This document shows positions 4,437-31,886 of a stretch of DNA of 35,551 nucleotides, in pieces. Position 1 is the first letter of the stretch. Each line of letters opens with the position of its first letter. The stretch covers positions 2,178 to 37,728 of the forward strand of contig CAZOSY010000003.1 in assembly GCA_964582565.1 (NCBI GenBank), written 5' to 3'. Below the pieces are notes generated by a model. The model was given only the letters and a program-made list of their open reading frames with translations, had not been told where the DNA came from and made no database searches. The translations under genes and the position numbers were made by a program. Source of the stretch: an uncultured Bacteroidales bacterium (GTDB lineage Bacteria; Bacteroidota; Bacteroidia; Bacteroidales; CAZZDX01).

Positions 4437-4441
4437 AAAAT

Positions 4442-4465
4442 GACTAAAATTTAAGTATTTTAGTC
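4442..4465 (+). terminator. hairpin between metH and metF (weak terminator or attenuator)
   Basis: 9-bp stem GACTAAAAT/ATTTTAGTC with the 6-nt loop TTAAGT, followed by GTTTG. The T-tract is poor and the stem is AT-rich. Confidence 0.3.
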
Positions 4466-4506
4466 GTTTGTAATAAATATATGTTTAAAAAAATGTTTAA
4501 TAAAAA

Positions 4507-5463: not shown

Positions 5464-5623
5464 GTTTTCGTTATGAGAGTTGAAAGTGCCAATAGAATTG
5501 GAAAGCACAGGATTGAGCATCGGAGATGTAGCAGAGCTACATTGAGAAGCGAAATCCGAGCATTTTCAATTATAGCAGGCAATTTCAACTCGTAATAGAT
5601 AATTTATGAATTATTCAGGTTAA
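5444..5623. repeat. 180-nt structured element E1 (unclassified ncRNA or MITE-like)
   Basis: Perfect 20-bp inverted arms TTAACCTGAATAATTCATAA (5444-5463) and TTATGAATTATTCAGGTTAA (5604-5623). Inner pairing is GAGTTGAAA/TTTCAACTC, and an internal hairpin is ATGTAGC-AGA-GCTACAT. The core is alignable to 9255-9397. Confidence 0.6.
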
Positions 5624-5770
5624 ACTTATTTGAATTATTTCTGGCATTAATTTTGATTATATATTTTTTAAAATGCCATATAAATGAATTAAAATTAAAA
5701 TGTTTAATATTGTTTAAAATTTTTTTTACAGACACTAATAATTTATAAATATATTTAAAATCAAAAAATT

Positions 5771-6832
5771 ATGAAAACCTCAAAAAATTATTCTTTTTTA
5801 TTGATAATCTGTCTTGGGTTGTTTATAGCTTCTTGTTCAACAACTTCTACCTCAGTACAGGTATTGGTTCCTGCAGAGATAACTGTCCCTCATCATATCA
5901 AAAAATTAGCAATTGCTAATCGTTCTTTACCTGCTAAAGGCGAACAGTTTTCCAATTTTATTGAAGGATTTCTTACAGGTGAATCTATTTGGGGAGACAA
6001 AGAAGGATCTAAAAGGTGTATTGAAGGACTTGCAAATAAATTAAATTCTTCACCAAGATTTGGTGCTACAATATCACATACATCTCTTAAAGGAACGGGA
6101 ACAAGAGAATTTTCTGTGCCTTTGCAATGGAATATGGTAAATAATATATGTAAACAATATAATGCAGACGCTCTAATCCTGCTTGAAACTTTTGATTCAA
6201 ACATTGCTTTTAAAACAGATAAAAAAACAAAAAAACAAAAAATTAAAAATAAAGAAACAGGAATAAGTAAAGATACTATTATAACTGAATATCTCGCTAA
6301 CTTGATTATCAATGTTAATGCTGGATGGCGAATCTATGACCCTGTTAACAAAAAAATAATTGATGAGGACTCTTTTATAGATGAAAAAAGATGGGGAAAA
6401 ACAGGTAAAAGTCCAGAAGATGTAGAAAGAAAATTACCTCCCAAAAGAGATGCAATAAATAGTGCCGGATATTTTGCAGGACAACAATTTGCAATAAGAA
6501 TATCACCTAACTGGAGAAACGTTGCAAGATATTACTATATTAAAGGACCTAATAATTACTTTAAAATGGCAAAGAATTATGCAAGAGCAGGTAACTGGGA
6601 TAAAGCTATGGACTTTTGGGAAAAACTAACCCCAAACCCAAATCACAAAATTGCAGGAAGAGCTTCTCATAATATGGCTGTAGCTAACGAAATGAAAGGA
6701 AACCTAAAACAAGCTCTCAAATGGGCAAATATTGCATATCAAGAACATAATATCAGAAAAGACAGATCTTATGTCAATGCTATTAGCCGTAGAATTATGG
6801 ATCAAGACAAACTTAAAGAACAAATGGAATAA
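5771..6832 (+). CDS. lipoprotein with C-terminal TPR-like repeats
   Basis: Signal peptide with lipobox LFIASC. The C-terminal helical repeats AKNYARAGNWDKAMDFWEKL and ANEMKGNLKQALKWANIAYQ resemble TPR units. Confidence 0.6.
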   Translation: MKTSKNYSFLLIICLGLFIASCSTTSTSVQVLVPAEITVPHHIKKLAIANRSLPAKGEQFSNFIEGFLTGESIWGDKEGSKRCIEGLANKLNSSPRFGATISHTSLKGTGTREFSVPLQWNMVNNICKQYNADALILLETFDSNIAFKTDKKTKKQKIKNKETGISKDTIITEYLANLIINVNAGWRIYDPVNKKIIDEDSFIDEKRWGKTGKSPEDVERKLPPKRDAINSAGYFAGQQFAIRISPNWRNVARYYYIKGPNNYFKMAKNYARAGNWDKAMDFWEKLTPNPNHKIAGRASHNMAVANEMKGNLKQALKWANIAYQEHNIRKDRSYVNAISRRIMDQDKLKEQME

Positions 6833-6910
6833 TATAACTGCCTGAAATAAAATTTGATTAGCTTATTGTAATAATCGGCAATCTACAGTAAACAGTCAGC
6901 AATTTTTTTG

Positions 6911-6918
6911 TAAATTTG
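6911..6918 (+). promoter_or_regulatory. orphan TAnnTTTG box (TAAATTTG) facing a repeat-filled noncoding tract
   Basis: An exact -7 consensus match, but the next plus-strand CDS starts about 480 nt away and has its own box at 7364-7371. Confidence 0.2.
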
Positions 6919-6985
6919 GTTCACAAATTTGTTAAATTCTTAACAACATCATCAGTTAGTCATGTTTGGCTACTGATTGCAAATT

Positions 6986-7048
6986 CCGTTGTAAATCCCG
7001 CATTTATACCGTTGGATATTATCCTACGGGATTTACCAACGGGGTAAA
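6986..7048. repeat. P-family hairpin repeat (CCGTTGG / CCAACGGGGTAAA / CCTACGGG motifs)
   Basis: TTTATACCGTTGGAT (7003-7017) and TTTACCAACGGGGTAAA (7032-7048) recur at 35364-35378 and 35393-35409. CCGTTGTAAATCCCG (6986-7000) is an alternative partner for CGGGATTTACCAACGG (7027-7042). Confidence 0.6.
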
Positions 7049-7074
7049 CTTTTGAATAAAGAAAATTGACTAAG

Positions 7075-7328
7075 GGATTCTAACAAAAGATTCCTCACTG
7101 CGTTCGGAATGACAGTTAATTATTTTTAGGTGGGTAAAGAGAGGCGTTTCGCCTTAGGCGAAACGCCTCTCTTTACCCATAATATATTAACCAAAATTAT
7201 CATTCCGAATGGAGCACATTCACTGGGTTCAGTGTAAACTCCACGGAATGAGGAATCTCAAGCTAAATTAAAATAGAGTAGATGGTAAAATACTATTTTA
7301 TGTAGCACCTCAAAATAATATTTAGCCA
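7075..7328. repeat. R-family nested-palindrome element, copy 1
   Basis: Central 23-bp perfect stem with a 3-nt loop (7131-7179). The middle arms are TTCGGAATGA/TCATTCCGAA. The outer arms are GATTCCTCA/TGAGGAATC (7089-7257). A 3-prime tail of about 70 nt follows. Direct copy of 9446-9675. Confidence 0.8.
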
Positions 7329-7363
7329 TAATTATTTTTTTTCTCGTCTTGACAAATTTTATG

Positions 7364-7371
7364 TAAATTTG
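7364..7371 (+). promoter_or_regulatory. Bacteroidota-type -7 promoter box TAAATTTG
   Basis: Lies 26 nt upstream of the ATG at 7397, within ACAAATTTTATGTAAATTTGT. That string is shared with 117-137 and partly with 24024-24045. Confidence 0.5.
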
Positions 7372-7396
7372 TCTTTTTTAATTAAAATATATAATT

Positions 7397-9178
7397 ATGT
7401 CAGGAAAAACATTTGTAGAAAAAATTTTAGGTGCAAAAAAAAACAGTATAGTTTTCAAAAAACCAAATATTGTCTTAACGCATGATAATACGGCAAGTAT
7501 TGAAAAAACATTTAAAAAAATGGGAGGAGATAAAGTTTCTGACCCAAATCAGTTATTAATTGTCTTAGACCATAATGCTCCGCCAACAAATGCGAAATTA
7601 GCAAATCAATATCAGGGAATAAGGAATTTTGTAAAATATCAGGGAATAAAAAAATTCTATGATGCAGGCATGGGAATTTGCCATCAATTGATGGCAAATC
7701 ATGCTGAACCCGGGATGTTGATTGCAGGAAGCGACAGTCATACCTGCACAGCCGGTGCCTTTAATACTTTAGCTGTTGGTATTGACAGAACAGAATCTGC
7801 CGGCTTATGGAAAAGAGAAGAGACATGGTTTCGTGTGCCTGAATCTATTAAAATTACTCTTAAAGGAAAATTAAATAAAGGAGTATATGCAAAAGATATC
7901 TCTCTCTGGATAATCGGTATGCTCGGCTCTGCCGGTGCTAACTATATGTCAATAGAATATCATGGACAAGGAGTAGAAACATTAACTATTGCACAACGAA
8001 TGACTTTAGCTAATCTTGCTTCTGAAATGGGAGCAAAAAATGCTGTGTTTCCTCCTGATAAAGTTTTAGCTAATTATTATGGAAAAGATAAAATTTCCGG
8101 AGTGTGGGCTGACCATGATGCAGAATATTTTAAAGAAATAGATATTAACTTAAATGATATTTTCCCGGTAGTTGCTGCTCCGCATTATGTTGACAATATA
8201 AAAGCTGTGTCAGAAGTTCAGGGCACAAAAGTAAATCAGGGATTTCTTGGAACCTGCACAAATGGTCGTCTCGAAGATTTACTTGTTGCATCCGAAATCC
8301 TTGAGAATAAAAAAATATCTGATGGATTTCAGTTAATTGTAACTCCGGCTTCAAAAGATATATATTTACAAGCTATTGAACAGGGAATAATCTCTAAACT
8401 GATGAAAGCAGGGGCAACAATACTCTCTGCATCTTGCGGACCTTGTCTGGGACTGGGGCAAGGCATTCCTGCTGACGGTTTTAATGTGATTTCTACTGCT
8501 AACAGAAACTTTTTGGGGAGAATGGGTAATAAAAATGCTAATATCTATTTAGCTTCACCGGCTTGTGTTGCTTATTCTGCTATTAAAGGTGAAATAACTG
8601 ACCCAAGAGGAATGCAATATAATGACAAATTTCCTTTTTCTAAAAAACAAACTTCCAGTGTTGAAATAAAAAAAGATGATAATCGTAAAGCAAATGGCAT
8701 CTGGAATTATAAAAATATTGATGACTTGAATACAGACCAGATGTTTGCAGGTAATCTGACATATAATATATTAAGTTCAGATGCAGAAGATATTATGCCT
8801 CATTTATTTAAGGGTTTTGATGAAAATTTTGCAGAAAATCTGCAAAAAAATGATATTATTATAGCAGGCAATAATTTTGGTTGTGGTAGCTCACGCGAAC
8901 ATCCTGCTGTTGGCTTGTCTTATGCAGGTGTTAAAGCTGTTATTGTTAAATCTGTTAATAGAATATTTTTTCGCTCTTCTGTCAATCAGGGCTTGCCTGT
9001 AATTATACTTGCCCAAGCTGTTGAGGCATTTAAACATGGAGATAAAGTAAATATAAATTTTGAAAAAGGTATTATAAATATTAATGATAAAATATTTAAT
9101 TTTGCTCCGCTCCCTGATAAACTAATGGAAATCTTTAAAGCAAAAGGACTGGTAAATTTTATTAAAAAAAACAGGTAA
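7397..9178 (+). CDS. aconitase-family dehydratase, fused LeuC-like large and LeuD-like small subunit (3-isopropylmalate or homoaconitate dehydratase type)
   Basis: 593 aa. The large-subunit motifs are GSDSHTCTAG plus the Fe-S ligand cysteines in GTCTNGR and SCGPCLG. The C-terminal ~170 aa carries the small-subunit motif GNNFGCGSSREH. Substrate cannot be assigned from sequence alone. Confidence 0.8.
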   Translation: MSGKTFVEKILGAKKNSIVFKKPNIVLTHDNTASIEKTFKKMGGDKVSDPNQLLIVLDHNAPPTNAKLANQYQGIRNFVKYQGIKKFYDAGMGICHQLMANHAEPGMLIAGSDSHTCTAGAFNTLAVGIDRTESAGLWKREETWFRVPESIKITLKGKLNKGVYAKDISLWIIGMLGSAGANYMSIEYHGQGVETLTIAQRMTLANLASEMGAKNAVFPPDKVLANYYGKDKISGVWADHDAEYFKEIDINLNDIFPVVAAPHYVDNIKAVSEVQGTKVNQGFLGTCTNGRLEDLLVASEILENKKISDGFQLIVTPASKDIYLQAIEQGIISKLMKAGATILSASCGPCLGLGQGIPADGFNVISTANRNFLGRMGNKNANIYLASPACVAYSAIKGEITDPRGMQYNDKFPFSKKQTSSVEIKKDDNRKANGIWNYKNIDDLNTDQMFAGNLTYNILSSDAEDIMPHLFKGFDENFAENLQKNDIIIAGNNFGCGSSREHPAVGLSYAGVKAVIVKSVNRIFFRSSVNQGLPVIILAQAVEAFKHGDKVNINFEKGIININDKIFNFAPLPDKLMEIFKAKGLVNFIKKNR

Positions 9179-9236
9179 TTTGCAATAACGAATATCCGAA
9201 AATTATGTGGGCAAATTGTATTTTTATAAAATATAA

Positions 9237-9415
9237 AGGGGAGTTCTAATAATTGGTTTTGTATATGAAAGTGAGCGAAAAATATCAGTATGAGGCGGAG
9301 GGTAAAATATTCCGCAGGCATAGCCATAGCTATGGTGAGGAAAGATTTTGCCCGATAACGAAATAATGATATTTTGCAGCCACTTGTAATAAAAAGTAAT
9401 TATTAGAACTCCCCT
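9237..9415. repeat. 179-nt structured element E2 (homolog of E1)
   Basis: Perfect 18-bp inverted arms AGGGGAGTTCTAATAATT (9237-9254) and AATTATTAGAACTCCCCT (9398-9415). Internal pairings are AAAATATCA/TGATATTTT and GCGGA/TCCGC, plus a CATAGC/GCTATG hairpin. Core blocks are shared with E1. Confidence 0.6.
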
Positions 9416-9445
9416 AAAGATATAGAAAAAAATCAATTGCTTAAT

Positions 9446-9675
9446 GGATTCTAACAAAAGATTCCTCACTGCGTTCGGAATGACAGTTAATTGTTTTTAG
9501 GTGGGGAAAGAGAGGCGTTTCGCCTTAAGCGAAACGCCTCTCTTTCCCCATAATATATTAACCAAAATTGTCATTCCGAATGGAGCTAAGCGGAATGAGG
9601 AATCTCAAGCTAAATTAAAATAGGCTAGCTGGTAAAATATTATTTTATGTAGCACCTCAAAATAATATTTAGCCA
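9446..9675. repeat. R-family nested-palindrome element, copy 2
   Basis: Same order and orientation as 7075-7328. The central palindrome at 9502-9550 has 22-bp arms. The right inner segment is shorter than in copy 1. Confidence 0.8.
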
Positions 9676-9762
9676 AAAAAAAGTTACTTTATAAACAAAT
9701 TTTAAACAAGTAATAGTTAAATTGTTGTTGCTATATGCTTGTTCTGTGAGTTATATAAACAA

Positions 9763-11742
<1,980 letters not shown>

Positions 11743-11751
11743 TTAATTCCA

Positions 11752-11759
11752 CAAATTTA
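11752..11759 (-). promoter_or_regulatory. Bacteroidota-type -7 promoter box (TAAATTTG on the minus strand)
   Basis: The plus strand reads CAAATTTA. It lies 31 nt upstream of the gyrB ATG at 11721. Confidence 0.45.
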
Positions 11760-11908
11760 ATAATTATTTTATTATAAAAAACATAAATATTGCATTAAAA
11801 TCACAGATTTATTGACATTTTTTAATATTGTATTAATATAAAAATATAAATATTGTAAAAATGGGACTAACAGGGGAAAGTTGTTACAAAAACAAGAAGC
11901 TAGTCAAT

Positions 11909-11947
11909 AAAAAAACTGTTACTAAAAATTTAGTAACAGTTTTTTTT
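11909..11947 (-). terminator. bidirectional intrinsic terminator downstream of T9SS paralog A
   Basis: Stem ACTGTTACTAAA/TTTAGTAACAGT, flanked by an A-run on one side and a T-run on the other. It lies 22 nt past the stop codon. Confidence 0.75.
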
Positions 11948-11968
11948 ATATAATATTTTGATTTTTAT

Positions 11969-14923
11969 CTATCTGTTAACAATAATTTTGTGAGTATATA
12001 CATCTTCTTTGTTTTGCAATCTGATAAGATAAATGCCGTTATCTAAATTTTCAAGATTTATCTCTTTTGTATTCAGACCTGTATGAGGATAAATATTTTT
12101 CTCTATCAAAGTTTGTCCTAATATGTTCATTACAGATAAATGTATTGGGCTTAAAGAAAGAGAATTGAGTTCTATTTTAACAAATATCTTACCTGTTTTG
12201 GTAGGGTTAGGATAAATATTTATATTTGACTGGTTTGTTAATTCTTTTATATTCACGCCTTCTTCTGTTGTAAAAGAAAATTCAGGACTCCATTCTGATG
12301 TATCACGACTATGTATTGCTCTTACTCGCCAGTAATATGTTTTTAAACGGGCAAGTCCTCCTATACCTCCTATTTCAATGGTATCAATAGAGCTAGTATC
12401 AACAACAGGATTGTTGAAACCTGGTAAAGTATCATATTGTATTTCATAATAGTTTATTCCTGTAATTTCTTCCCATTTTAAACCAGGATTAACCTCTATG
12501 TCTGTTGCTCCATCAGCAGGATAAGTAAGATTAGCTTTATCAATTACAGTAAAATACCATACAGATGTCCAATCACTGGTATTGCTACTATTATATTTTG
12601 CTCTTACCCTCCAGTAATACTTGGTTCCAAATAAAAGTTCGTTGTTAGAAATCTGTACATAAGGCAAATTATCATCGGCAACAGTAAAACTATATTCAAA
12701 ACTATTAAAATCTGCAATAGTATCAATTTCAAAATCATAATTTGGCACACCTGCTATAGAATTGCATCTTAAAAATACATCAGGCATCATATCGTCAGCA
12801 CCATCATAAGGTGCAATAAGTGTTGCATTATTTACTGTTATAAATGTTCTTACTTGAGACCATGCAGATGCATCGCTATTATGTATAGCTCTTACTCTCC
12901 AGTAATATTTTGTTCCAAATAAGGACTGGACAGCAAATGCCTGTGTTTCAGGCAAATCACTGCTAACTGAAATAATGTTATATTGTGAACTGTTAAAATT
13001 ATTTGTAGTATCAACTTCGCAACTATAATATGTTACACCTGTTACAGCATCCCATTTTAATATCAAACTCAATGATTGATTTGTTACACCATCATTTGGA
13101 TAAATTTGATTTAAAGTATCAATAACTGTAAAGCTTCTTGTTAATGACCATGCAGAAGAATCCGTGCTGTTAAGAGCTTTAACTCTCCAAAAATATTTTT
13201 TACCAAATAATAATTCCTGCGTATTTACAGAAGTATTAACTGATATTAATGTATCTGAAAATAAAAATAAAGAGTTTGTATCTAATTCAATCATATAGGA
13301 AGTTGCTCCTGATATTGCAGCCCACTCTAATAATACATCCGGCATTTGGTTTGTTGCTAAATCTTCCGGTGATATTAAATTTGGAGAACCCGGCATTGTA
13401 TCCAAACTGGTAAAAAACCATATTGATGACCATGAACTTGTATCAATATTATGCATGGTTTTTACTCTCCAGTAATACTTGGTTTTAAACAATAGTGTAT
13501 CAAGGTTTATTTGTGATACATTATCAGTATCTGATATAAGAAGCGTACTGTTAAAATTTAAAGAAGTATCTATTTGTGTAATATAATTTGTTATTCCTGT
13601 AATACTATCCCATTTTAATGAAACATCTAACATTTGACCTGTTGCATTATTAACAGGTGAAATCAAACCAACAGTATTAATAACAGTAAAATTTCTTGCT
13701 GTTGACCAGTCAGAAGAATCAGTGCTATTAATGGCTTTAACTCTCCAAAAATATTTTTCAGCAAATAATAGTTCCTGTGTATTTACAGAAGTATTAGTTG
13801 ATGTTAATGTATCTGAAAATTGGAATAAAGAATTTGTATCTATTTCAATCATATAAGAAGTTGCTCCTGATATTGCGGACCATTCTAATAATGTATTTGG
13901 CATTTGGTTTATTGCTAAATCTTCCGGTGATATTAAATTTGGAGCATTTGGCATTGTATCCAAAGTAGTAAATGACCATTTTGGTGACCAAAAAGAAGAA
14001 TCGTTAGTTCCTATAGCTTTCATTCTCCAGTAATATGTTTGTCCAAACAAAAACGTATCAAGAGTTATCTTGCTGTTATTAGACCATATTAAACCTGAAT
14101 CTAAGGATGTTAAATCTATGGGTGTTGGGAAAAATAATATTTTAAGAGGATTAGGAAAAGAATTGTTTGTATCTAATTCTATTTTATATAAATTAATTCC
14201 CAAAACAGGGTCCCAATCTAATAACACATTATTTGGCGACAGTTCTGTTGCTAAATTTTCGGGTAATACTAAATTTGGAGCACTTGGTATTGTATCTATT
14301 GTGGCGAAAGACCATACTGATGACCATAAACTGGTGTCAGCACTATGTCTGGCTCTTATTCTCCAGTAATATTTAGTTCCGTATAACAATTGGCTTGAAC
14401 TCATACCTATAGCAGAACCATTTACAAAGCCAGATATAAGATGCGTGCTGTTAAAATTTATGATAGTATCAATTTGATAATCATAATTTGTTAATCCTGT
14501 AATGCTATACCATGTTAATAATGCATTTGGTAACTGATATTTGGCACCATTATCAGGTAATTCTAAGGCAACGGTATTAATGACAGTAAAATTTCTTACT
14601 GCTGACCAATAAGAAGAATCGCTGTCATCTATAGCTTTAACTCTCCAAAAATACTTTTCACCAAATAAAAGTTCATGAGCATTAACAGTAGTTACTGCTG
14701 ATGTAAGTATTATCGGATTAATGAACAAAGAATTTGTATCTATTTGAATTTTATAATACAATCCAAAGTCGCCTGTTACCGGCTCCCAATTCAGTAATAC
14801 ATTTGGCATTTGGTCAACTGCCGAATTGCTTGGCGACACCAAACTTGGTGTATAAATCCTTGTCTGTGCTAAAATTCCTGAAACAACTAAAACAAACATA
14901 AAAACAAAAAATATTTTTTTCAT
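11969..14923 (-). CDS. T9SS-sorted repetitive surface protein, paralog A (nine FN3-like modules plus C-terminal sorting domain)
   Basis: 984 aa with signal peptide MKKIFFVFMFVLVVSGILAQ. Nine modules of about 93 aa each end in Y[YF]WR[VIM][KR][AT]...D[ST]S.WS...F. The C-terminal ~85 aa (IYPNPTKTG...GIYLIRL...KIIVNR) matches the type A T9SS sorting domain. Confidence 0.85.
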   Translation of the reverse strand: MKKIFFVFMFVLVVSGILAQTRIYTPSLVSPSNSAVDQMPNVLLNWEPVTGDFGLYYKIQIDTNSLFINPIILTSAVTTVNAHELLFGEKYFWRVKAIDDSDSSYWSAVRNFTVINTVALELPDNGAKYQLPNALLTWYSITGLTNYDYQIDTIINFNSTHLISGFVNGSAIGMSSSQLLYGTKYYWRIRARHSADTSLWSSVWSFATIDTIPSAPNLVLPENLATELSPNNVLLDWDPVLGINLYKIELDTNNSFPNPLKILFFPTPIDLTSLDSGLIWSNNSKITLDTFLFGQTYYWRMKAIGTNDSSFWSPKWSFTTLDTMPNAPNLISPEDLAINQMPNTLLEWSAISGATSYMIEIDTNSLFQFSDTLTSTNTSVNTQELLFAEKYFWRVKAINSTDSSDWSTARNFTVINTVGLISPVNNATGQMLDVSLKWDSITGITNYITQIDTSLNFNSTLLISDTDNVSQINLDTLLFKTKYYWRVKTMHNIDTSSWSSIWFFTSLDTMPGSPNLISPEDLATNQMPDVLLEWAAISGATSYMIELDTNSLFLFSDTLISVNTSVNTQELLFGKKYFWRVKALNSTDSSAWSLTRSFTVIDTLNQIYPNDGVTNQSLSLILKWDAVTGVTYYSCEVDTTNNFNSSQYNIISVSSDLPETQAFAVQSLFGTKYYWRVRAIHNSDASAWSQVRTFITVNNATLIAPYDGADDMMPDVFLRCNSIAGVPNYDFEIDTIADFNSFEYSFTVADDNLPYVQISNNELLFGTKYYWRVRAKYNSSNTSDWTSVWYFTVIDKANLTYPADGATDIEVNPGLKWEEITGINYYEIQYDTLPGFNNPVVDTSSIDTIEIGGIGGLARLKTYYWRVRAIHSRDTSEWSPEFSFTTEEGVNIKELTNQSNINIYPNPTKTGKIFVKIELNSLSLSPIHLSVMNILGQTLIEKNIYPHTGLNTKEINLENLDNGIYLIRLQNKEDVYTHKIIVNR

Positions 14924-14969
14924 ATTATTAATTTATTATTAAAAAATATTATTATTCATTTTAGTCAAT

Positions 14970-15008
14970 AAAAAAACTGTTACTAAAAATTTAGTAACAG
15001 TTTTTTTT
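14970..15008 (-). terminator. bidirectional intrinsic terminator downstream of T9SS paralog B (duplicate of 11909-11947)
   Basis: Identical hairpin and flanking runs, offset by exactly 3,061 nt. Confidence 0.75.
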
Positions 15009-15029
15009 ATATAATATTTTGATTTTTAT

Positions 15030-17984
15030 CTATCTGTTAACAATAATTTTGTGAGTATATACATCTTCTTTGTTTTGCAATCTGATAAGATAAATGCCGT
15101 TATCTAAATTTTCAAGATTTATCTCTTTTGTATTCAGACCTGTATGAGGATAAATATTTTTCTCTATCAAAGTTTGTCCTAATATGTTCATTACAGATAA
15201 ATGTATTGGGCTTAAAGAAAGAGAATTGAGTTCTATTTTAACAAATATCTTACCTGTTTTGGTAGGGTTAGGATAAATATTTATATTTGACTGGTTTGTT
15301 AATTCTTTTATATTCACGCCTTCTTCTGTTGTAAAAGAAAATTCAGGACTCCATTCTGATGTATCACGACTATGTATTGCTCTTACTCGCCAGTAATATG
15401 TTTTTAAACGGGCAAGTCCTCCTATACCTCCTATTTCAATGGTATCAATAGAGCTAGTATCAACAACAGGATTGTTGAAACCTGGTAAAGTATCATATTG
15501 TATTTCATAATAGTTTATTCCTGTAATTTCTTCCCATTTTAAACCAGGATTAACCTCTATGTCTGTTGCTCCATCAGCAGGATAAGTAAGATTAGCTTTA
15601 TCAATTACAGTAAAATACCATACAGATGTCCAATCACTGGTATTGCTACTATTATATTTTGCTCTTACCCTCCAGTAATACTTGGTTCCAAATAAAAGTT
15701 CGTTGTTAGAAATCTGTACATAAGGCAAATTATCATCGGCAACAGTAAAACTATATTCAAAACTATTAAAATCTGCAATAGTATCAATTTCAAAATCATA
15801 ATTTGGCACACCTGCTATAGAATTGCATCTTAAAAATACATCAGGCATCATATCGTCAGCACCATCATAAGGTGCAATAAGTGTTGCATTATTTACTGTT
15901 ATAAATGTTCTTACTTGAGACCATGCAGATGCATCGCTATTATGTATAGCTCTTACTCTCCAGTAATATTTTGTTCCAAATAAGGACTGGACAGCAAATG
16001 CCTGTGTTTCAGGCAAATCACTGCTAACTGAAATAATGTTATATTGTGAACTGTTAAAATTATTTGTAGTATCAACTTCGCAACTATAATATGTTACACC
16101 TGTTACAGCATCCCATTTTAATATCAAACTCAATGATTGATTTGTTACACCATCATTTGGATAAATTTGATTTAAAGTATCAATAACTGTAAAGCTTCTT
16201 GTTAATGACCATGCAGAAGAATCCGTGCTGTTAAGAGCTTTAACTCTCCAAAAATATTTTTTACCAAATAATAATTCCTGCGTATTTACAGAAGTATTAA
16301 CTGATATTAATGTATCTGAAAATAAAAATAAAGAGTTTGTATCTAATTCAATCATATAGGAAGTTGCTCCTGATATTGCAGCCCACTCTAATAATACATC
16401 CGGCATTTGGTTTGTTGCTAAATCTTCCGGTGATATTAAATTTGGAGAACCCGGCATTGTATCCAAACTGGTAAAAAACCATATTGATGACCATGAACTT
16501 GTATCAATATTATGCATGGTTTTTACTCTCCAGTAATACTTGGTTTTAAACAATAGTGTATCAAGGTTTATTTGTGATACATTATCAGTATCTGATATAA
16601 GAAGCGTACTGTTAAAATTTAAAGAAGTATCTATTTGTGTAATATAATTTGTTATTCCTGTAATACTATCCCATTTTAATGAAACATCTAACATTTGACC
16701 TGTTGCATTATTAACAGGTGAAATCAAACCAACAGTATTAATAACAGTAAAATTTCTTGCTGTTGACCAGTCAGAAGAATCAGTGCTATTAATGGCTTTA
16801 ACTCTCCAAAAATATTTTTCAGCAAATAATAGTTCCTGTGTATTTACAGAAGTATTAGTTGATGTTAATGTATCTGAAAATTGGAATAAAGAATTTGTAT
16901 CTATTTCAATCATATAAGAAGTTGCTCCTGATATTGCGGACCATTCTAATAATGTATTTGGCATTTGGTTTATTGCTAAATCTTCCGGTGATATTAAATT
17001 TGGAGCATTTGGCATTGTATCCAAAGTAGTAAATGACCATTTTGGTGACCAAAAAGAAGAATCGTTAGTTCCTATAGCTTTCATTCTCCAGTAATATGTT
17101 TGTCCAAACAAAAACGTATCAAGAGTTATCTTGCTGTTATTAGACCATATTAAACCTGAATCTAAGGATGTTAAATCTATGGGTGTTGGGAAAAATAATA
17201 TTTTAAGAGGATTAGGAAAAGAATTGTTTGTATCTAATTCTATTTTATATAAATTAATTCCCAAAACAGGGTCCCAATCTAATAACACATTATTTGGCGA
17301 CAGTTCTGTTGCTAAATTTTCGGGTAATACTAAATTTGGAGCACTTGGTATTGTATCTATTGTGGCGAAAGACCATACTGATGACCATAAACTGGTGTCA
17401 GCACTATGTCTGGCTCTTATTCTCCAGTAATATTTAGTCCCGTATAACAATTGGCTTGAACTCATGCTTGGAGCAGAACTGCTTACAGAGCCAGATATAA
17501 GATAAGTGCTGTTAAAGTTCATAATAGTATCAATTTGATAATCATAATTTGTTAATCCTGTAATACTATGCCATTGTAGTAATACATTTAGTAACTGGCA
17601 TTTGGCACCATTATCAGGTAAATTTAAAGTAACAATATTAATAACAGTAAAATTTCTTACTGCTGACCAATTAGAAGAATCGCTGTCGTCTATAGCTTTA
17701 ACTCTCCAAAAATATTTTTTACCAAATAAAAGTTCATGAGCATTAACAGTAGTTACTGCTGATGTAAGTGTTACCGGGTTGGCAAATGAATCAGTTATAG
17801 CTATTTGAATTTTATAATACAATCCAAAGTCGCCTGTTACCGGCTCCCAGTTCAGTAATGCATTTGGCATTTGGTTAACTGCCGAATTACTTGGCGATAC
17901 CAAACTTGGTGCATAAGTCCTTGTCTGTGCTAAAATTCCTGAAACAACCAAAGCAAATGCGAAAACAAAAAATATTTTTTTCAT
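15030..17984 (-). CDS. T9SS-sorted repetitive surface protein, paralog B
   Basis: 984 aa. Residues 174-984 are identical to paralog A. By my hand count there are about 31 differences within residues 1-173. Confidence 0.85.
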   Translation of the reverse strand: MKKIFFVFAFALVVSGILAQTRTYAPSLVSPSNSAVNQMPNALLNWEPVTGDFGLYYKIQIAITDSFANPVTLTSAVTTVNAHELLFGKKYFWRVKAIDDSDSSNWSAVRNFTVINIVTLNLPDNGAKCQLLNVLLQWHSITGLTNYDYQIDTIMNFNSTYLISGSVSSSAPSMSSSQLLYGTKYYWRIRARHSADTSLWSSVWSFATIDTIPSAPNLVLPENLATELSPNNVLLDWDPVLGINLYKIELDTNNSFPNPLKILFFPTPIDLTSLDSGLIWSNNSKITLDTFLFGQTYYWRMKAIGTNDSSFWSPKWSFTTLDTMPNAPNLISPEDLAINQMPNTLLEWSAISGATSYMIEIDTNSLFQFSDTLTSTNTSVNTQELLFAEKYFWRVKAINSTDSSDWSTARNFTVINTVGLISPVNNATGQMLDVSLKWDSITGITNYITQIDTSLNFNSTLLISDTDNVSQINLDTLLFKTKYYWRVKTMHNIDTSSWSSIWFFTSLDTMPGSPNLISPEDLATNQMPDVLLEWAAISGATSYMIELDTNSLFLFSDTLISVNTSVNTQELLFGKKYFWRVKALNSTDSSAWSLTRSFTVIDTLNQIYPNDGVTNQSLSLILKWDAVTGVTYYSCEVDTTNNFNSSQYNIISVSSDLPETQAFAVQSLFGTKYYWRVRAIHNSDASAWSQVRTFITVNNATLIAPYDGADDMMPDVFLRCNSIAGVPNYDFEIDTIADFNSFEYSFTVADDNLPYVQISNNELLFGTKYYWRVRAKYNSSNTSDWTSVWYFTVIDKANLTYPADGATDIEVNPGLKWEEITGINYYEIQYDTLPGFNNPVVDTSSIDTIEIGGIGGLARLKTYYWRVRAIHSRDTSEWSPEFSFTTEEGVNIKELTNQSNINIYPNPTKTGKIFVKIELNSLSLSPIHLSVMNILGQTLIEKNIYPHTGLNTKEINLENLDNGIYLIRLQNKEDVYTHKIIVNR

Positions 17985-18021
17985 ATTCTTAATTTATTAT
18001 TATAAAAAATTAGAAATTATT

Positions 18022-20868
18022 TTATTTAAAAACTATAAATTTAGCAGAAACTTTTTCTTTTTCTGCAATCAATTGAACAAAGTATGTCCCGGAATAAAAA
18101 GAATTACAATCTATTATAAACTTATGATTACCAGACGGTTGATTGGATAAGTCAATTGATTTTATAATTCTGCCTGTTATATCATAAATATTAATCATTA
18201 TATTACTGCTCTTATTCAGATTATATTCAATATTCATATTATCTGTTACAGGATTAGGGTATATTTTTAATTCAGATTTAGCTATTGCTACAGGATTATC
18301 AGGTTCTTTTATTCCGACATAATCCAGACATTCAAATATTCCCCGTCCATGAGTGCCAATATAAACAGCTCCATAATTAGTAATTCCCGGGAAGTTGTTA
18401 ATTTGTTGTCCCATCATATAGACCGGAACTCTTGCCATATATTCATTATCTTCTGCCCATGTTGGATAAGAATAATTTATATTTTGAGTAGTAAATACAC
18501 CATATTCTGTTCCTAAAATTACAGTATTTGAATTATACATAGGAATTACAGAAGCATAAACAGGCATTCTTGGTAATGCATTAGTTCCGCTTCCTTGTTT
18601 TGAAGAAAAAATAGGCAAAGAGTCCAATACATTAGTAGATTCATAAACGTAATTAGTATTACCATAATTGCCGAGTGTAACAATAATATGATTATTATCA
18701 TTAGGATCTATAGCAATAGAAGTAACTGCCTGATAGCTAAATGTTTTTAATAATTTTGTTTCAATAGCGCAGGAAGAGCTGGTAACATCAGAGTTTGAGA
18801 AGTCATAAGACAAAGCAAGGTTTGACATTCTGTATAATTTTCCTCCGTTAGTGCCAACAAAGAGATAGTTTCCGTTTTTGGAATAAGACATTGTTTGCAC
18901 GGCTCCTGTAAATTCAGATATTTTATACCATTCGGGTATTTTTGAGAAGTCCAAAGCTTGTTTAGTCATCCATACACCTCCATTTATGCCAAGAAAAAAT
19001 TTGGACTGAATAATATCCTGAATTTTTATAGAATCTCCTGTATAAAGAGGTGATTGAAGAACATATTCAAAAGGATAGTTGTTGTTATTACTTTTTACTA
19101 TAATAGTATCTCCCGCAGCATATTGATTTGTATCAGCCAAAAAAGTTACAGAATCAGTGCTGTGAATATCATTAATACTCTCCCAAAATACAATAGGAGT
19201 AACAAAACATGCCTCAATATTAGAATTTATCATTCTTTGGCTATAAAATGCAGCCACTAGATTTCCGTCGTTATCAATAGTATAAGGACCTTGGAAATTA
19301 TTACCTAAATCAGGGGATCGGCTTGCTTCACCATAATAAATTGAAGCGAATAACACTTCCGGATTGATTAAAGAAAAGGCACAATATCCGCCATCTCCTC
19401 CCATAATATGTTTTCCATTCATAGGAGTATTACCTTTTCTGTCAATAAGTATAGTTCCGTTGTCTTGTGTGCCGCCCATTACAGAGCCATCACCTCCATA
19501 TGCTACTGTATAAAACTGAACAGTATTATAATTTCTGTTTAAAGTATGGAATGTTTCTCCGCCATCAGTAGATTGTGATACTCCGCCATCACTTCCGGTA
19601 TAAATTATGTCAGGATTTTCAGGATGAAAAACATATTTATGATGGTCGGCATGGATATAATGAATATCTGTAGGTTCTAAGAACCACAGTGTTTTATTTG
19701 TCCATGTTCCTCCCTGATTCCATTCCCACATATCAATACCACCAAGGATAATTTTATCGCGATTGTTTGGAAATACAACTATTTCATTATCATAATGTCC
19801 TTGATTTCTAAATGGCTGGAAGTCATCTGAGCCACCAGGACCAATAATTTCCCATGTTTCTCCTTTATCTGTAGATCTATAGATATTTTTTATTTCGCCA
19901 TTTGTTTTTGCAGCGCTGGCATATATATAGTTAGGGTCAGACGGAGCTATTGCAAATTCAATTCTGCTAACACCTGTTGCACCTGGAATATTTTTTTCAT
20001 CAAAAGTGCCGAGTTCTCCATTAGTAGAGATATAACATTTATTATTTATACAAGCAAGGACGCTTCTGTCAGAAGCCACTTCAACATCATAAGTTTTACC
20101 ATTATTAGGATGTCCCGGGGCTAATTCCACAGGATTTGTCCATGTTTCTCCCTGATCGTCAGATACTTTTAAGCCACTATTTGTTGCGGCATATACTCTT
20201 TCAGAAACAGGGTCGCATGCTAATTCATATACAAAAGCCCATTTAACAGAAGTGCTGTTTGGGGTAGGTTTTGTAGAAGGCAAAAATTCAAATGTCTCTC
20301 CATCTGTTGATTTATACATTCCCTGTCCAATAAAACTTGTGCTGCCATTAGCACCACCAGTAACAACGCCAAAACCTTCTCCTGTGCCAACATAAATAAT
20401 TCCACTAGGGGATTGTGTAATACAAGAGATAGCAAGATTTTGTGCCATATCATTAACTGGCACCCACGAACTACCTCCTGTAGTTGATTTCCATAATCCG
20501 CCACTTACACCACCGGCATACATAATATTTGGATTATTTCTGTCAATAAGTATTGCTCTTGTTCTGCCTCCAACATTATCAGGTCCAACTTCTGCCCAAT
20601 TAAGACCTATAGCAGTTTTTGTTTTTGCTAATTTATTTACCTGTGCTCTGGCATTTAATACATCTTGCGAATTAATTTCTCCTGTTATCTTATTATTTCT
20701 AATTGAAGCCAAATATTCAATAGCTCCTTTTATACCTTGTTGTTTTTGAATATTATCTTTACGGGGTATATATTTTTGCGTTTTAAATATACCTGAGGAA
20801 GTAATAATAAAAGTAATACTTACAAAAGATAAAACTATTAAACTTAAGAATAAATTTTTGTTTCTCAT
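18022..20868 (-). CDS. BNR/Asp-box repeat (sortilin/VPS10-like beta-propeller) protein with T9SS sorting domain
   Basis: Asp-box motifs are STTGGSSW, SDDQGETW, STDKGETW and STDGGETF. The C-terminus KIYPNPVTDN...GTYFVQL...KFIVFK is a T9SS sorting domain. The ORF track starts at 20895, but I prefer the ATG at 20868 (MRNKNLFLSLIVLSF), which begins directly at the signal peptide. Confidence 0.8.
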   Translation of the reverse strand: MRNKNLFLSLIVLSFVSITFIITSSGIFKTQKYIPRKDNIQKQQGIKGAIEYLASIRNNKITGEINSQDVLNARAQVNKLAKTKTAIGLNWAEVGPDNVGGRTRAILIDRNNPNIMYAGGVSGGLWKSTTGGSSWVPVNDMAQNLAISCITQSPSGIIYVGTGEGFGVVTGGANGSTSFIGQGMYKSTDGETFEFLPSTKPTPNSTSVKWAFVYELACDPVSERVYAATNSGLKVSDDQGETWTNPVELAPGHPNNGKTYDVEVASDRSVLACINNKCYISTNGELGTFDEKNIPGATGVSRIEFAIAPSDPNYIYASAAKTNGEIKNIYRSTDKGETWEIIGPGGSDDFQPFRNQGHYDNEIVVFPNNRDKIILGGIDMWEWNQGGTWTNKTLWFLEPTDIHYIHADHHKYVFHPENPDIIYTGSDGGVSQSTDGGETFHTLNRNYNTVQFYTVAYGGDGSVMGGTQDNGTILIDRKGNTPMNGKHIMGGDGGYCAFSLINPEVLFASIYYGEASRSPDLGNNFQGPYTIDNDGNLVAAFYSQRMINSNIEACFVTPIVFWESINDIHSTDSVTFLADTNQYAAGDTIIVKSNNNNYPFEYVLQSPLYTGDSIKIQDIIQSKFFLGINGGVWMTKQALDFSKIPEWYKISEFTGAVQTMSYSKNGNYLFVGTNGGKLYRMSNLALSYDFSNSDVTSSSCAIETKLLKTFSYQAVTSIAIDPNDNNHIIVTLGNYGNTNYVYESTNVLDSLPIFSSKQGSGTNALPRMPVYASVIPMYNSNTVILGTEYGVFTTQNINYSYPTWAEDNEYMARVPVYMMGQQINNFPGITNYGAVYIGTHGRGIFECLDYVGIKEPDNPVAIAKSELKIYPNPVTDNMNIEYNLNKSSNIMINIYDITGRIIKSIDLSNQPSGNHKFIIDCNSFYSGTYFVQLIAEKEKVSAKFIVFK

Positions 20869-20912
20869 ATTGCTTATTTTATTATAATTAAACATTCTGT
20901 ATTTTAAAAATA

Positions 20913-20920
20913 CAAATATA
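20913..20920 (-). promoter_or_regulatory. candidate -7 box (TATATTTG on the minus strand)
   Basis: The plus strand reads CAAATATA. It is upstream of both candidate start codons of the BNR gene. No clear -33 TTTG. Confidence 0.3.
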
Positions 20921-21066
20921 TAAAAAATAATTTAATATAAAACCATTAAACAATATTTTTTTATTTTTATCAAACTTTTACCACATTGTATTACACTATG
21001 AAACAAAATTTGAGACATTTTTTAGAATAATTGGGTTAATTGGGATTTTGCTAATTGATATATTTA

Positions 21067-21837
21067 TTATTTATTATATCTTTTCCCAAAATGAAAGCTA
21101 AAATAAACAGACAGGAATATATTATTATTAGTATTAAAAGCCATAATTGGAATAGATTTTGGATATGCATCAATAATAGCACCAACTTCAAGGGCTTTAA
21201 TATTTTTGTTGTATAAGCCATACTCAAAGTTAAATCCAACTTTTCCATAAATTCCCGGATAGACACTCATTTTGTCCAGTCCCTTAGTAAAAGCTGCTCT
21301 GCCACATATATTTTCCATAAAATGTTTGTTAGGGTCAAATCTTTCTGTGGTGATATCATAGTCAGAAGCGGATGAAAAATCCAAAGTATAAATACTCAAA
21401 TAAACAGGTTTTGTTAATCCCAAAGATATGCCTCCATAATAGAAATACCTTACTTCAACTCCACCCCAGTAAGGTTTGGTATTTATTATTTTTTGAATTC
21501 CAATGCCTGTCCTTATATTAAATAATTCATTTAACTTACCATAGACATAACTTTTAGAATTGTCAAAATAAGGATTTATAGTTTTTGTTTCTTTGGGATG
21601 TTTTGTTTTTACAAGTTCAATCTCAAGCATTTTTTTTTTAAACCCTGTTAAATGCTTACCTTTTCTGAAAGTAAATCCCCATCCGGCAGAATGGATAACA
21701 AAAGCTGCACTATATTCTTTATAGTATAAAACTTTTACCTGCTCAATGCTTGTTGTATCCTGAGAATAAGAATAAAAGCAAAAACAAAGAAGAATAGATA
21801 TTAATAATAGTTTTATATTTATACTTATATTTCGCAT
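21067..21837 (-). CDS. hypothetical secreted or outer-membrane protein
   Basis: 256 aa with an N-terminal signal-like segment (LLLISILLCFCFYSYSQ). Alternating hydrophobic patterns such as GFNFEYGLY and VGAIIDAY are suggestive of beta strands. I recognised no family. Confidence 0.5.
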   Translation of the reverse strand: MRNISINIKLLLISILLCFCFYSYSQDTTSIEQVKVLYYKEYSAAFVIHSAGWGFTFRKGKHLTGFKKKMLEIELVKTKHPKETKTINPYFDNSKSYVYGKLNELFNIRTGIGIQKIINTKPYWGGVEVRYFYYGGISLGLTKPVYLSIYTLDFSSASDYDITTERFDPNKHFMENICGRAAFTKGLDKMSVYPGIYGKVGFNFEYGLYNKNIKALEVGAIIDAYPKSIPIMAFNTNNNIFLSVYFSFHFGKRYNK

Positions 21838-21962
21838 TATTTGTAATTAATTATCTGCCTAAGGACGAATAATTTATAAAGATAAAAAAAAATTACAAAT
21901 CAAAGATTATAATCACTTATAATAAAAAAATAAAAATCAATCAGATGCCTGACCCATAGATT

Positions 21963-22109
21963 TTATTTTTGAATATTAGCATTATGTGCTCCTGAATAAG
22001 CATAGGCAGGACATGGTGGCTCTCTTGTTATTCTGTTTGTCCTGCATGAAGATAAAAACATAGTTAATAAAAATAATACTGTAACAAACAATAATAAAAC
22101 TTTTTTCAT
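21963..22109 (-). CDS. small putative lipoprotein (48 aa), absent from the ORF track
   Basis: My own translation is MKKVLLLFVTVLFLLTMFLSSCRTNRITREPPCPAYAYSGAHNANIQK. It has a basic N-terminus, a hydrophobic core and an LSSC lipobox. Confidence 0.4.
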   Translation of the reverse strand: MKKVLLLFVTVLFLLTMFLSSCRTNRITREPPCPAYAYSGAHNANIQK

Positions 22110-22272
22110 AATTTTACTTCAAAATTTAAGTTCTTTATAGATAATCAAAAAATTTTTGCAAATTTAGTTTTTATTTTATAAATAATAAAAAAAAATATCA
22201 ATTATTTATAAATATTAAAGTTTAAATTTATATAAACATCTGATATACAAGGATAAACAAAAAAAAATATTT

Positions 22273-24027
22273 TTGAAAAAAATTATTTACATATTATTCA
22301 TTCTGCTTTTTTGTTTTGTTTTTAAATTAAATGCGCAAAACTATACTTTATCATTAGAAAACAATAGTGATAAAGACAATAAAATGATTAAGAAATTAAA
22401 TTATAAAAAGCATTTTTATACTAAAACAGAAAGAGAAAAAGAAATAAAAAATATTTTATTTTGGCTTTACAATAATTCATATATAACTGCAAGATTTGAC
22501 AGTATTATTGAAGATTCATTAAATTTATCTGCATATCTGTTTGTCGGAAACAAATATACATTAGCATCTGTTAATAAAGGAAATGTTGATAAGACATTAC
22601 TTAGTGAAGTTGGCTATAAAGAAAATTTTTATTCACCTAAAGCAGGCAAAGTTTTTCAATATAAAGAGATACGAACTTTAATTGAAAAAATACTTATTTT
22701 TTGTGAAAACAATGGCTATCCTTTTGCTTTAATTAAATTAGACAGCATAAGCATTGATTCAAACTGTTTACAGGCAAGTTTAAATCTTAATAAAAATCTT
22801 AAAATTAATATTGACAGCATTATTATTAAAGGAAATGCAAAAATTTCTAATACCTATCTTTACTCTTATTTAGGAATAAAACCAAAAAATATTTATAATG
22901 AATCAAAAATAAACAAAATAAATACCAGATTAAAAGAATTACAATTTGTTAAAAAAACAAAACCCATTGATATAATATTTGTAAAAAATGATGCAAAAAT
23001 TTTGCTTTATATAGATAAAAAAAATGTTAGCCAGTTTAATGGCATTTTAGGTGTTTTACCTAATAATAGGACAGGAAAAATTTTGCTAAATGGTGATGTT
23101 CATTTAAAATTGCTCAATTCATTTGGAAAAGGAGAACTAATTGATTTTAACTGGCGTAAAATAGAACAAAACACTCAAAACTTAAAAACTAATTTTGTCT
23201 TGCCTTTTATCTTATCTACTCCTTTTGGCATTGACTTTAAATTTTCTATTTACAAAAAAGATACTTCTTATCTTAATATAAATTCTAATATTGGTATTCA
23301 GTATTTATTTAAAGGGAATAATTATATAAAAGTTTTTTTAGACAATCGTAAATCTTCATTAGTTAGCACTACGGGATTGAAAAATATAACTGTGCTACCT
23401 TCTTATGCTGATATTTCGACAATGTTTTACGGCTTAGAACTAAATAATGAAAAACTTGACTATGGTCTCAACCCAAGAAAAGGTTATCAAATAAAACTCT
23501 CGGCAGCTGCAGGGAATAAAAATATTAAAAAAAATGATAAAATAAACCCTGATATATATGACAAATTAAAATTATCAACAACACAATATAAAATAGAATC
23601 TGATTTTGGTGTGTTTTTACCTTTGTTTCAAAAAAATACAATCTTTATTAATATAAAAAGTGCAATTATTGATAATCCAAATCTTTTTGAAAATGAACTT
23701 TACAGAATCGGAGGATTAAAAACACTTAGAGGTTTTGACGAAGAATCTATTAATGCTTCATTATATTCAATTTTAAATATTGAATACAGATATCTGTTAG
23801 AACAAAATTCTTACATATATCTTTTTTGGAATGGGGCATATTATGAAAACAAATCTGTTAATCCGCCTGAAGTGAGTTGCGACAGACCTTATGGCTTTGG
23901 TGCTGGAATTAGTTTTGAAACAAAAATAGGGATATTCTCTATTAATTATGCTCTTGGAAAACAATTTAATAACCCTATATATTTCAAATCTGCAAAAATC
24001 CATTTTGGGGTGGTTAATTATTTTTAA
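22273..24027 (+). CDS. Omp85/BamA-family outer-membrane barrel protein (surface antigen D15-like)
   Basis: 584 aa. Starts at TTG, with a signal peptide ending NAQ. It has a POTRA-like N-terminal half, an L6-loop-type motif LRGFDE and an aromatic C-terminal residue (GVVNYF). Confidence 0.7.
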   Translation: MKKIIYILFILLFCFVFKLNAQNYTLSLENNSDKDNKMIKKLNYKKHFYTKTEREKEIKNILFWLYNNSYITARFDSIIEDSLNLSAYLFVGNKYTLASVNKGNVDKTLLSEVGYKENFYSPKAGKVFQYKEIRTLIEKILIFCENNGYPFALIKLDSISIDSNCLQASLNLNKNLKINIDSIIIKGNAKISNTYLYSYLGIKPKNIYNESKINKINTRLKELQFVKKTKPIDIIFVKNDAKILLYIDKKNVSQFNGILGVLPNNRTGKILLNGDVHLKLLNSFGKGELIDFNWRKIEQNTQNLKTNFVLPFILSTPFGIDFKFSIYKKDTSYLNINSNIGIQYLFKGNNYIKVFLDNRKSSLVSTTGLKNITVLPSYADISTMFYGLELNNEKLDYGLNPRKGYQIKLSAAAGNKNIKKNDKINPDIYDKLKLSTTQYKIESDFGVFLPLFQKNTIFINIKSAIIDNPNLFENELYRIGGLKTLRGFDEESINASLYSILNIEYRYLLEQNSYIYLFWNGAYYENKSVNPPEVSCDRPYGFGAGISFETKIGIFSINYALGKQFNNPIYFKSAKIHFGVVNYF

Positions 24028-30810: not shown

Positions 30811-30818
30811 ACCTCCGT

Positions 30819-31817: not shown

Positions 31818-31886
31818 AAACAAAATTTTTACTATTATTGCATTAAATTTAACAAACTATTTAATAATTAATTCAAATTCAAAAAT

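Follow-up and report, generated by a model that had tools for sequence, protein, structure and literature searches.

Probable gene conversion within an old tandem pair of T9SS cargo genes in an uncultured Bacteroidales bacterium

Two neighbouring genes for a cargo protein of the type IX secretion system (T9SS) are present in the genome of an uncultured Bacteroidales bacterium (GTDB lineage CAZZDX01; assembly GCA_964582565.1). We analysed a stretch of 35,551 nucleotides of contig CAZOSY010000003.1 (positions 2,178 to 37,728 of the forward strand), referred to as the window, in which the two genes lie head to tail on the minus strand, copy 1 next to gyrB and copy 2 next to a sortilin/BNR-like gene. 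The 3' blocks of the two repeat units are identical and their 5' blocks have diverged as far as genes of two species. The most probable explanation in our view is a real and old tandem pair that carries a recent gene conversion tract, with conversion having taken place repeatedly across the species.

Comparison of the two units and of a single-copy relative

A base-by-base comparison of both units showed a head-to-tail arrangement that repeats every 3,061 bp. No mismatch was found over 2,477 bp (11901-14377 compared to 14962-17438), and the 584 bp left in each unit (14378-14961 compared to 17439-18022) contain 68 mismatches and no indels, corresponding to 88.4% identity. An earlier sequence-only reading of the window had described an exact duplication of 3,061 bp, which is correct for the 2,477 bp but not for the other 584 bp. 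Its narrower statement, that 11901-14377 equals 14962-17438, stands, since the full alignment shows no scattered mismatches. The identity it had reported for residues 174-984 was likewise recovered: the two proteins differ at 31 residues, none of them beyond residue 173. If mismatches occurred at the rate seen in the 5' block (11.6%), the probability of a mismatch-free run of 2,477 bp would be ~1e-133 by our own arithmetic; thus, the contrast between the 5' and 3' blocks is not due to chance.

A metagenome contig (Ga0265594_1000148, L004), the nearest relative, is syntenic with the window at 88-94% nucleotide identity and contains a single gene of 980 amino acids between the sortilin-like gene and gyrB. 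The comparison of copy number in related genomes, proposed earlier, therefore gives one copy at the same locus, which supports the duplicated state as the derived one. In a three-way alignment of the 3' block, the two copies are 100% alike and ~90% identical to L004; at 245 sites both copies agree against L004, and no site separates the copies. The identities in the 5' block are 88% between copy 1 and copy 2, 86% between copy 1 and L004 and 90% between copy 2 and L004, and the private changes are distributed in a star-like manner (42 in copy 1, 22 in copy 2 and 35 in L004).

The synonymous divergence (dS) between the 5' blocks of copy 1 and copy 2 is 0.23. To the L004 ortholog, dS is 0.21 for the copy 2 5' block and 0.24 for the 3' block. 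Since the dS between the 5' blocks is about that between orthologs, the 5' blocks seem to have parted about as long ago as the two species. Judged by these distances, the duplication is evolutionarily old and not recent, and the very recent duplication that had been offered as one explanation is contradicted by them as well as by the 5' divergence, which reaches right up to the junction between the units. The ratio of nonsynonymous to synonymous divergence (dN/dS) is 0.3-0.4 throughout, and at this ratio positive selection on the 5' block is unsupported. The private codon changes of copy 1 comprise 11 synonymous and 13 nonsynonymous ones with a neutral expectation of ~1:3.6, which argues for purifying selection on copy 1 and thus for a functional copy. 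By these measures both 5' blocks are under purifying selection and both copies have been kept functional. Taken together, the old divergence of the 5' block and the identity of the 3' block point to an old pair in concerted evolution through gene conversion and not to a recent duplication; the ongoing gene conversion that had been listed among the possible explanations is supported by the same distances.

The junction at 14961/14962 lies directly behind the terminator of copy 2. It joins sequence homologous to the upstream gene around its stop codon (…TAAAAT…) to sequence homologous to that just past the terminator next to gyrB (TAGTCAAT…); the sequence in the middle corresponds to the right flank up to …ATTTTA and then to the left flank from TAGTCAAT… onwards. 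In gene orientation, the junction 30-mer reads TTTTTTTATTGACTAAAATGAATAATAATA. Copy 2 starts 37 nt past the stop codon of the sortilin-like gene, and copy 1 starts 38 nt past the junction. Such an arrangement, two like-oriented units that meet at a novel junction, is what a tandem duplication by illegitimate recombination should look like. A single such event would have fused sequence past the terminator of the gene to the stop-codon region of the upstream gene, resulting in a 3,061-bp unit without a recognisable promoter. The copies would then have diverged, with the 5' 584 bp keeping the record (dN/dS 0.4). Subsequently, homologous recombination between the copies would have repeatedly overwritten one copy with the other, either by non-reciprocal gene conversion or by an equivalent cycle of unequal exchange, presumably in a RecA-dependent manner. 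In this genome the latest tract would comprise codons 183-984 and the terminator and end at the outer edge of homology (11901/14962). Other populations would have tracts that end elsewhere and pieces of copy-1-type 5' sequence in the upstream copy, as expected of an ongoing process that yields mosaic N-terminal regions. We infer that the mechanism is gene conversion of the RecA type and that conversion is ongoing.

Break points and mosaic alleles in same-species contigs

A protein identical to the sortilin-like protein of the window is encoded on eight contigs from JGI, ENA and Logan assemblies. Upstream of the gene of interest these contigs match the window at ~99.95% identity, with 5 mismatches over 10 kb, and they differ from it at 64 sites in the first 840 bp of the gene. 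The 5' region of the gene is hypervariable within the species.

All eight contigs stop inside the gene. Together with L017, a contig from the gyrB side, nine contigs were available, and five of them end exactly one k-mer past a site that distinguishes the copies or past the edge at 11901. L017, a SPAdes contig (JGI 3300039186), matches the window from 2115 to 12027 and stops after exactly 127 nt of the repeat that begins at 11901, and L008, which is also from 3300039186, breaks off 127 nt beyond site 1187, the last position at which it differs from the window. L010 and L011 (MEGAHIT, k = 141) end 141 nt past site 737; L014 (Logan SRR8862235) ends 31 nt past site 74, a copy-1/copy-2 difference that is followed by 31 shared bases. 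The k value of 141 was taken from the MEGAHIT contig names (k141_…), and the values of 127 (JGI) and 31 (Logan) were assumed from the usual pipeline settings. Contigs that end one k-mer past a branch point reflect the behaviour of de Bruijn graphs at the edge of a repeat, so these break points suggest that two copies are present in the other samples, too, and that their outer edge is again at 11901. The tract limits deduced in this way vary: 584 in the window, 737 in ERZ27317826 and ERZ27316679, and 1187 in 3300039186.

The upstream-copy haplotypes all share a third haplotype at sites 98-284, followed by the copy-2 type at sites 303-458. At the 14 consecutive distinguishing sites between 500 and 584, L008, L009 and L012 have the copy-1 state throughout (14/14), although they represent the upstream-copy position; L010 and L011 keep the copy-2 type there. 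Behind the copy-1 tract, L008, L009 and L012 carry a private patch at sites 607-737. Another internal repeat was considered as the source of this patch in L008 and L012 and rejected, with no better match found in the window or in L004. L008 (JGI) and L012 (ENA) stem from separate samples and data sources, and a 1-nt indel is all that sets them apart, which makes an assembler chimera an unlikely origin of the mosaic. From ~766 nt past the sortilin-like stop codon onwards, L009 (ERZ27315634) shares only 77% identity with the window and 81% with L004, which by sequence comparison is a strongly diverged allele within otherwise near-identical genomes. The differing endpoints and the mosaic 5' blocks of these contigs again favour ongoing conversion.

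Two further observations concern single contigs. In L012 (= L007; ERZ27315541; P0001), a 1-nt deletion in a T run ~800 nt past the sortilin-like stop codon truncates the upstream-copy gene to 267 amino acids. The deletion is missing from L008, which is otherwise identical, and may reflect either a genuine frameshift variant or a mistake of the assembly. In L025 (P0002; ERZ27315452 k141_512267), a MEGAHIT contig of 869 bp, the first 270 nt of a copy-2-type gene with copy-1 states at two sites are joined to a NusB-like 3' end at GGTAAAAAA (positions 434-869). We rejected this contig as a rearrangement; it is most likely chimeric.

Alternative explanations

Several points weigh against an old pair with repeated conversion. 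Among the independent contigs only the left edge of the repeat was recovered, and neither the junction at 14961/14962 nor the copy-1 5' block was found in them. The assembler may have threaded one consensus through both copies and could thereby have hidden a few real differences within the 2,477 bp. The tract limits in other samples derive from contig stops, and co-occurring strains could cause such breaks as well; likewise, part of the mosaic diversity could stem from allelic exchange between strains instead of exchange between copies. Three taxa without an outgroup do not fix the order of duplication and speciation, and the L004 lineage may have lost a copy. Finally, everything said below about the expression of the two copies is deduced from sequence signals.

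An assembly artefact, which the earlier reading had also considered, could take two forms, either one real copy with a second one made of mis-joined strain variants, or two real copies whose 100% identity results from repeat collapse or polishing. We regard an artefact as unlikely. The locus is evidently hard to assemble, as every recovered short-read assembly of the species breaks here, and exact-protein look-ups of copy 1, copy 2 and gyrB in the contig collection gave no record. In addition, an assembler does not need reads across the repeat to resolve a graph of the order flank, R, X1, R, X2, flank, and R is then written identically twice. The gene's 3' part from conspecific samples was not present in the protein collection searched with the C-terminal 287 amino acids. 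A spurious second copy, however, is difficult to reconcile with a 5' block of its own that is substituted at 68 sites and keeps its reading frame open, with a novel junction whose overlap with either parental flank is only ~2 nt, far too short for a k-mer mis-join, and with assemblies at k = 31, 127 and 141 that stop exactly k nt past copy-distinguishing sites or the 11901 edge, L017 with its 127 nt of repeat among them. Collapse or polishing would alter only the degree of identity and not the sharp contrast with the 5' block. Quite unlikely, too, is a recent duplication in which all 3,061 bp were once identical and the 5' 584 bp of one copy were later replaced by an imported, diverged allele. 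Such an exchange would be plausible in a species that has very diverged 5' alleles (77-93% identity) beside flanks of 99.9% identity, and copy 2 and L004 are at similar distances from the copy-1 5' block. The divergence of copy 1, however, comes as close as 5 nt to the junction, since offsets 3041-3056 of 3061 still contain mismatches, and a single-copy donor has no homology beyond the junction, so that the second crossover would have been confined to a few bases. An import into copy 2 instead predicts a shift of divergence in the sortilin-like gene, but its protein is identical in eight conspecific contigs, and the tract limits that differ between samples fit repeated conversion better.

A dedicated cassette system in the manner of pilE/pilS, in which the promoterless, terminator-insulated downstream copy serves as donor archive and the expressed upstream copy as recipient, appears very improbable. 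It would agree with the strong terminator in front of copy 1 and the lack of an upstream TAnnTTTG box, with the copy-1-type tract in the upstream copy of other strains and with the concentration of variation in the N-terminal region. In cassette-type antigenic variation (pilE/pilS, vlsE, tprK), however, the donors are silent, truncated or promoterless, whereas copy 1 is a complete reading frame for 984 amino acids under purifying selection that has a start codon and a signal-peptide-like N-terminus. There is a single potential donor, the long 3' conversion tract homogenises rather than diversifies, and no specialised cis element was seen.

Gene product, neighbourhood and related systems

The features of the locus are listed in Table 1. 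The T9SS sorting domain occupies residues 903-983 and was detected with Por_Secre_tail PF18962 (4e-12, 46.7 bits; cutoff 27) and TIGR04183 (2.1e-12, 46.9 bits; cutoff 23), confirming the two T9SS-sorted reading frames of 984 amino acids that had been recognised earlier. The N-terminus MKKIFFVF(M/A)F(V/A)LVVSGILAQ resembles a signal peptide, judged by eye only; the copy-1-type stretch contains …GTTTTTATGTTTGTTTTAGTT…. The rest of the protein consists of approximately ten Fn3-like repeats of ~94 amino acids each, with Pfam matches to Ig_Rha78A_N (4e-32), Pur_ac_phosph_N (4e-18) and fn3 (2e-13). At the DNA level, the internal repeats are 66-78% identical, and the two-domain period is 558-570 nt. 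Two adjacent two-domain units of L004, 558 nt apart (10864-11163 and 11422-11721), are 88% identical, compared to only 76% for their counterparts in the window (12989-13288 and 13547-13846), which suggests that homogenisation may also take place among the repeats inside the gene.

Table 1. Features of the tandem locus and its flanks in the window
Feature	Coordinates	Strand	Remarks
gyrB, single-copy downstream flank	9763..11721	-	synteny in L004 and L017
Repeat unit 1 (gyrB side): terminator, copy 1 coding sequence, 38-nt leader	11901..14961	-	from period and junction alignment
Putative homogenised tract, unit 1: codons 183-984, stop codon, terminator	11901..14377	-	~90% identical to L004 ortholog
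Predicted bidirectional intrinsic-terminator hairpin, serves copy 1, faces gyrB	11909..11946		18-nt perfect inverted repeat
Copy 1 coding sequence, 984 amino acids	11969..14923	-	signal-peptide-like N-terminus, ~10 Fn3-like repeats, T9SS type A C-terminal domain
Putative unconverted 5' block, copy 1: leader, signal peptide, first ~1.7 Fn3-like domains	14378..14961	-	86% identical to L004
Duplication junction 14961/14962	14955..14968		~2 nt (TA) overlap between the joined sequences
Repeat unit 2 (sortilin side): terminator, copy 2 coding sequence, 37-nt leader	14962..18022	-	leader reaches stop codon of upstream gene
Putative homogenised tract, unit 2	14962..17438	-	100% identical to 11901-14377
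Identical predicted terminator hairpin after copy 2, between the copies	14970..15007		18-nt perfect inverted repeat
Copy 2 coding sequence, 984 amino acids	15030..17984	-	architecture as copy 1; 31 residue differences from copy 1
Putative unconverted 5' block, copy 2	17439..18022	-	90% identical to L004 ortholog; haplotype seen independently in L025
Sortilin/BNR-like T9SS cargo gene, 957 amino acids, upstream neighbour	18022..20895	-	37 nt before copy 2, no terminator between
Candidate Bacteroidota -7 promoter box TATATTTG	20913..20920	-	ends 17 nt before sortilin-like ATG; consensus match only

A protein search with the C-terminal 287 amino acids gave 231 family members, none with more than 42% identity. 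Homologs are common in metagenome-assembled genomes of Bacteroidota as 'T9SS type A sorting domain-containing proteins' of ~500 amino acids with at most 42% identity, and a sequence search of the PDB gave 0 matches. From its domains, the product would be a secreted or cell-surface chain of Fn3-like domains, most likely a binding protein at the surface or in the medium. Surface-attached T9SS cargo with type A C-terminal domains is anchored by the C-terminus, so the variable N-terminus would represent the exposed distal tip of the protein.

The gene order is metH, MTHFR, an aconitase-family gene, gyrB, the pair, the sortilin/BNR-like T9SS cargo gene, a BamA-like protein, RmuC and ValRS, which is an ordinary housekeeping chromosomal neighbourhood in the ~30% G+C genome of an uncultured member of the Bacteroidota. 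As stated in the sequence-only reading, both units have the same intrinsic terminator; its inverted repeat is flanked by A and T runs, and RNAfold pairs 17 bp at -18.1 kcal/mol. The candidate promoter box TATATTTG is the sole TAnnTTTG match on the minus strand within 17715-20920, the next one downstream lying at 17707-17714, and no such match was found inside the unit upstream of the start codon of either copy. Another match, TATGTTTG (14893-14900, minus strand), is generated by copy-1-specific substitutions in the signal-peptide codons and is absent from copy 2; being downstream of the copy 1 start codon, it is probably irrelevant. A scan for sigma-70-type promoters was uninformative (48 sites found, 45 expected by chance). 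Since no terminator separates the two genes, copy 2 probably shares a transcript with the sortilin-like cargo gene. For copy 1, which follows a strong terminator, expression would probably require read-through or a promoter of a non-canonical kind.

The main open reading frames outside 30092-32645 were scanned with Pfam and contain no mobile-element or recombinase domains, and in 11500-22300 no inverted repeats of the invertible-promoter type were present beyond the terminator hairpins and AT-rich chance pairs. Phase variation by invertible promoters, as known from Bacteroidota, is thus not supported, as flanking inverted repeats and a recombinase domain are lacking in the regions and reading frames scanned. 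Rfam and tRNA scans of the window gave no matches.

Several other elements were noticed around the locus. The sorting domain is also present on the neighbouring gene, and L010-L012 carry a GldB_lipo gene just beyond a HEPN/nucleotidyltransferase pair; both would be indirect hints at T9SS machinery in the same genome. The HEPN/nucleotidyltransferase pair is toxin-antitoxin-like, lies at 30092-30810 and is kept in same-species contigs (L008-L012, positions 86-804). An intergenic element of ~260 nt is present in two direct copies (7054-7331 and 9425-9678) that flank the aconitase-family gene and are ~90% identical with one 24-nt indel. Nested in CGGAATG/CATTCCG inverted repeats, the element has a perfect GC-rich hairpin of ~22 bp, and it matched no Rfam family. 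Several same-species short-read contigs stop at 9395-9416, just short of this element, which suggests that it is multi-copy; it is probably similar to a miniature inverted-repeat transposable element (MITE) or a repetitive extragenic palindromic (REP) element. A scan of genome contigs with the sortilin-like query resulted in one relative with 41% identity (L001) and two spurious matches. L001 has an open reading frame of 966 amino acids at the match (9166-12066) and one of 957 amino acids just upstream (6262-9135); long direct repeats were not found in it, and hence it is uninformative on the duplication.

A similar pattern of paralog evolution has been described for surface proteins of a pathogen. 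In PMC2795765, which cites Pride & Blaser 2002, the 3' segments of Helicobacter pylori babA/babB and homA/homB are reported to evolve in concert via intragenomic gene conversion, with divergent 5' segments. Like the pair described here, these are surface-protein paralogs with concerted 3' and divergent 5' parts and strain-variable mosaic alleles. The H. pylori paralogs, however, are located at dispersed loci and encode autotransporter-like outer-membrane proteins of a pathogen, whereas the present genes are arranged head to tail and encode T9SS cargo of an environmental member of the Bacteroidota; moreover, bab conversion was shown by experiment, whereas conversion is deduced from sequence alone here. 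In Porphyromonas gingivalis, identical repeats within and between rgpA, kgp and hagA disrupt assembly, and domain rearrangement and allelic exchange set strains apart (PMC5266723). These genes are the closest precedent among T9SS cargo, and repeats break short-read assemblies in both cases. They differ from the present pair in having cleaved adhesin domains and DUF2436 instead of Fn3-like repeats of the Ig_Rha78A_N / Pur_ac_phosph_N type, and in being dispersed genes with a protease domain, whereas here a two-gene tandem without a protease domain is found.

Tandem duplications in Salmonella and E. coli (Anderson & Roth; Reams & Roth; Sandegren & Andersson) have established long direct repeats as substrates for RecA-dependent loss, amplification and conversion. 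The pair resembles these duplications in its head-to-tail arrangement and in a join point with little or no homology, and the remark of the sequence-only reading on copy-number change is sound as an inference, since unequal recombination between the two copies is plausible. In the laboratory, such duplications tend to be unstable and soon disappear unless selected for, whereas this pair has persisted to a dS of 0.23 in its 5' block; moreover, perfect direct repeats of 2.5 kb that lie 0.6 kb apart should otherwise collapse quickly. Both considerations point to retention of the two copies by selection. A survey of prokaryotic genomes found paralogs that are closer to each other than to their orthologs via recurrent conversion (Wang & Chen 2018; PMC6053082). 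There, concerted evolution mostly concerned genes of key pathways and protein complexes and was ascribed to gene balance (PMC6053082), unlike the present case, in which a variable surface or secreted protein is homogenised only in part.

One may speculate that, in an environmental, non-pathogenic member of the Bacteroidota, the pair is a diversity generator of minimal size, with two cassettes that vary the exposed N-terminal tip of a T9SS surface protein and with the terminator-attenuated downstream copy storing an alternative tip, but we consider this a long shot. If true, segmental conversion would shuffle segments of the tip while the anchoring 3' part stays identical, and pressure by phages or grazers would maintain many mosaic alleles in the population.

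No new mechanism is revealed by these data; gene conversion is a well-known route of evolution of bacterial surface-protein genes. The locus would provide a clean natural case of partial concerted evolution in a bacterial tandem pair, in which an old, maintained 5' difference stands next to a fresh 3' homogenisation. It is also a caution for genome analysts, since it breaks every recovered short-read assembly of the species and since a duplication cannot be dated from the perfect identity of its paralogs. In T9SS biology, the locus would be an example outside Porphyromonas of cargo genes that vary between strains via recombination among repeats.

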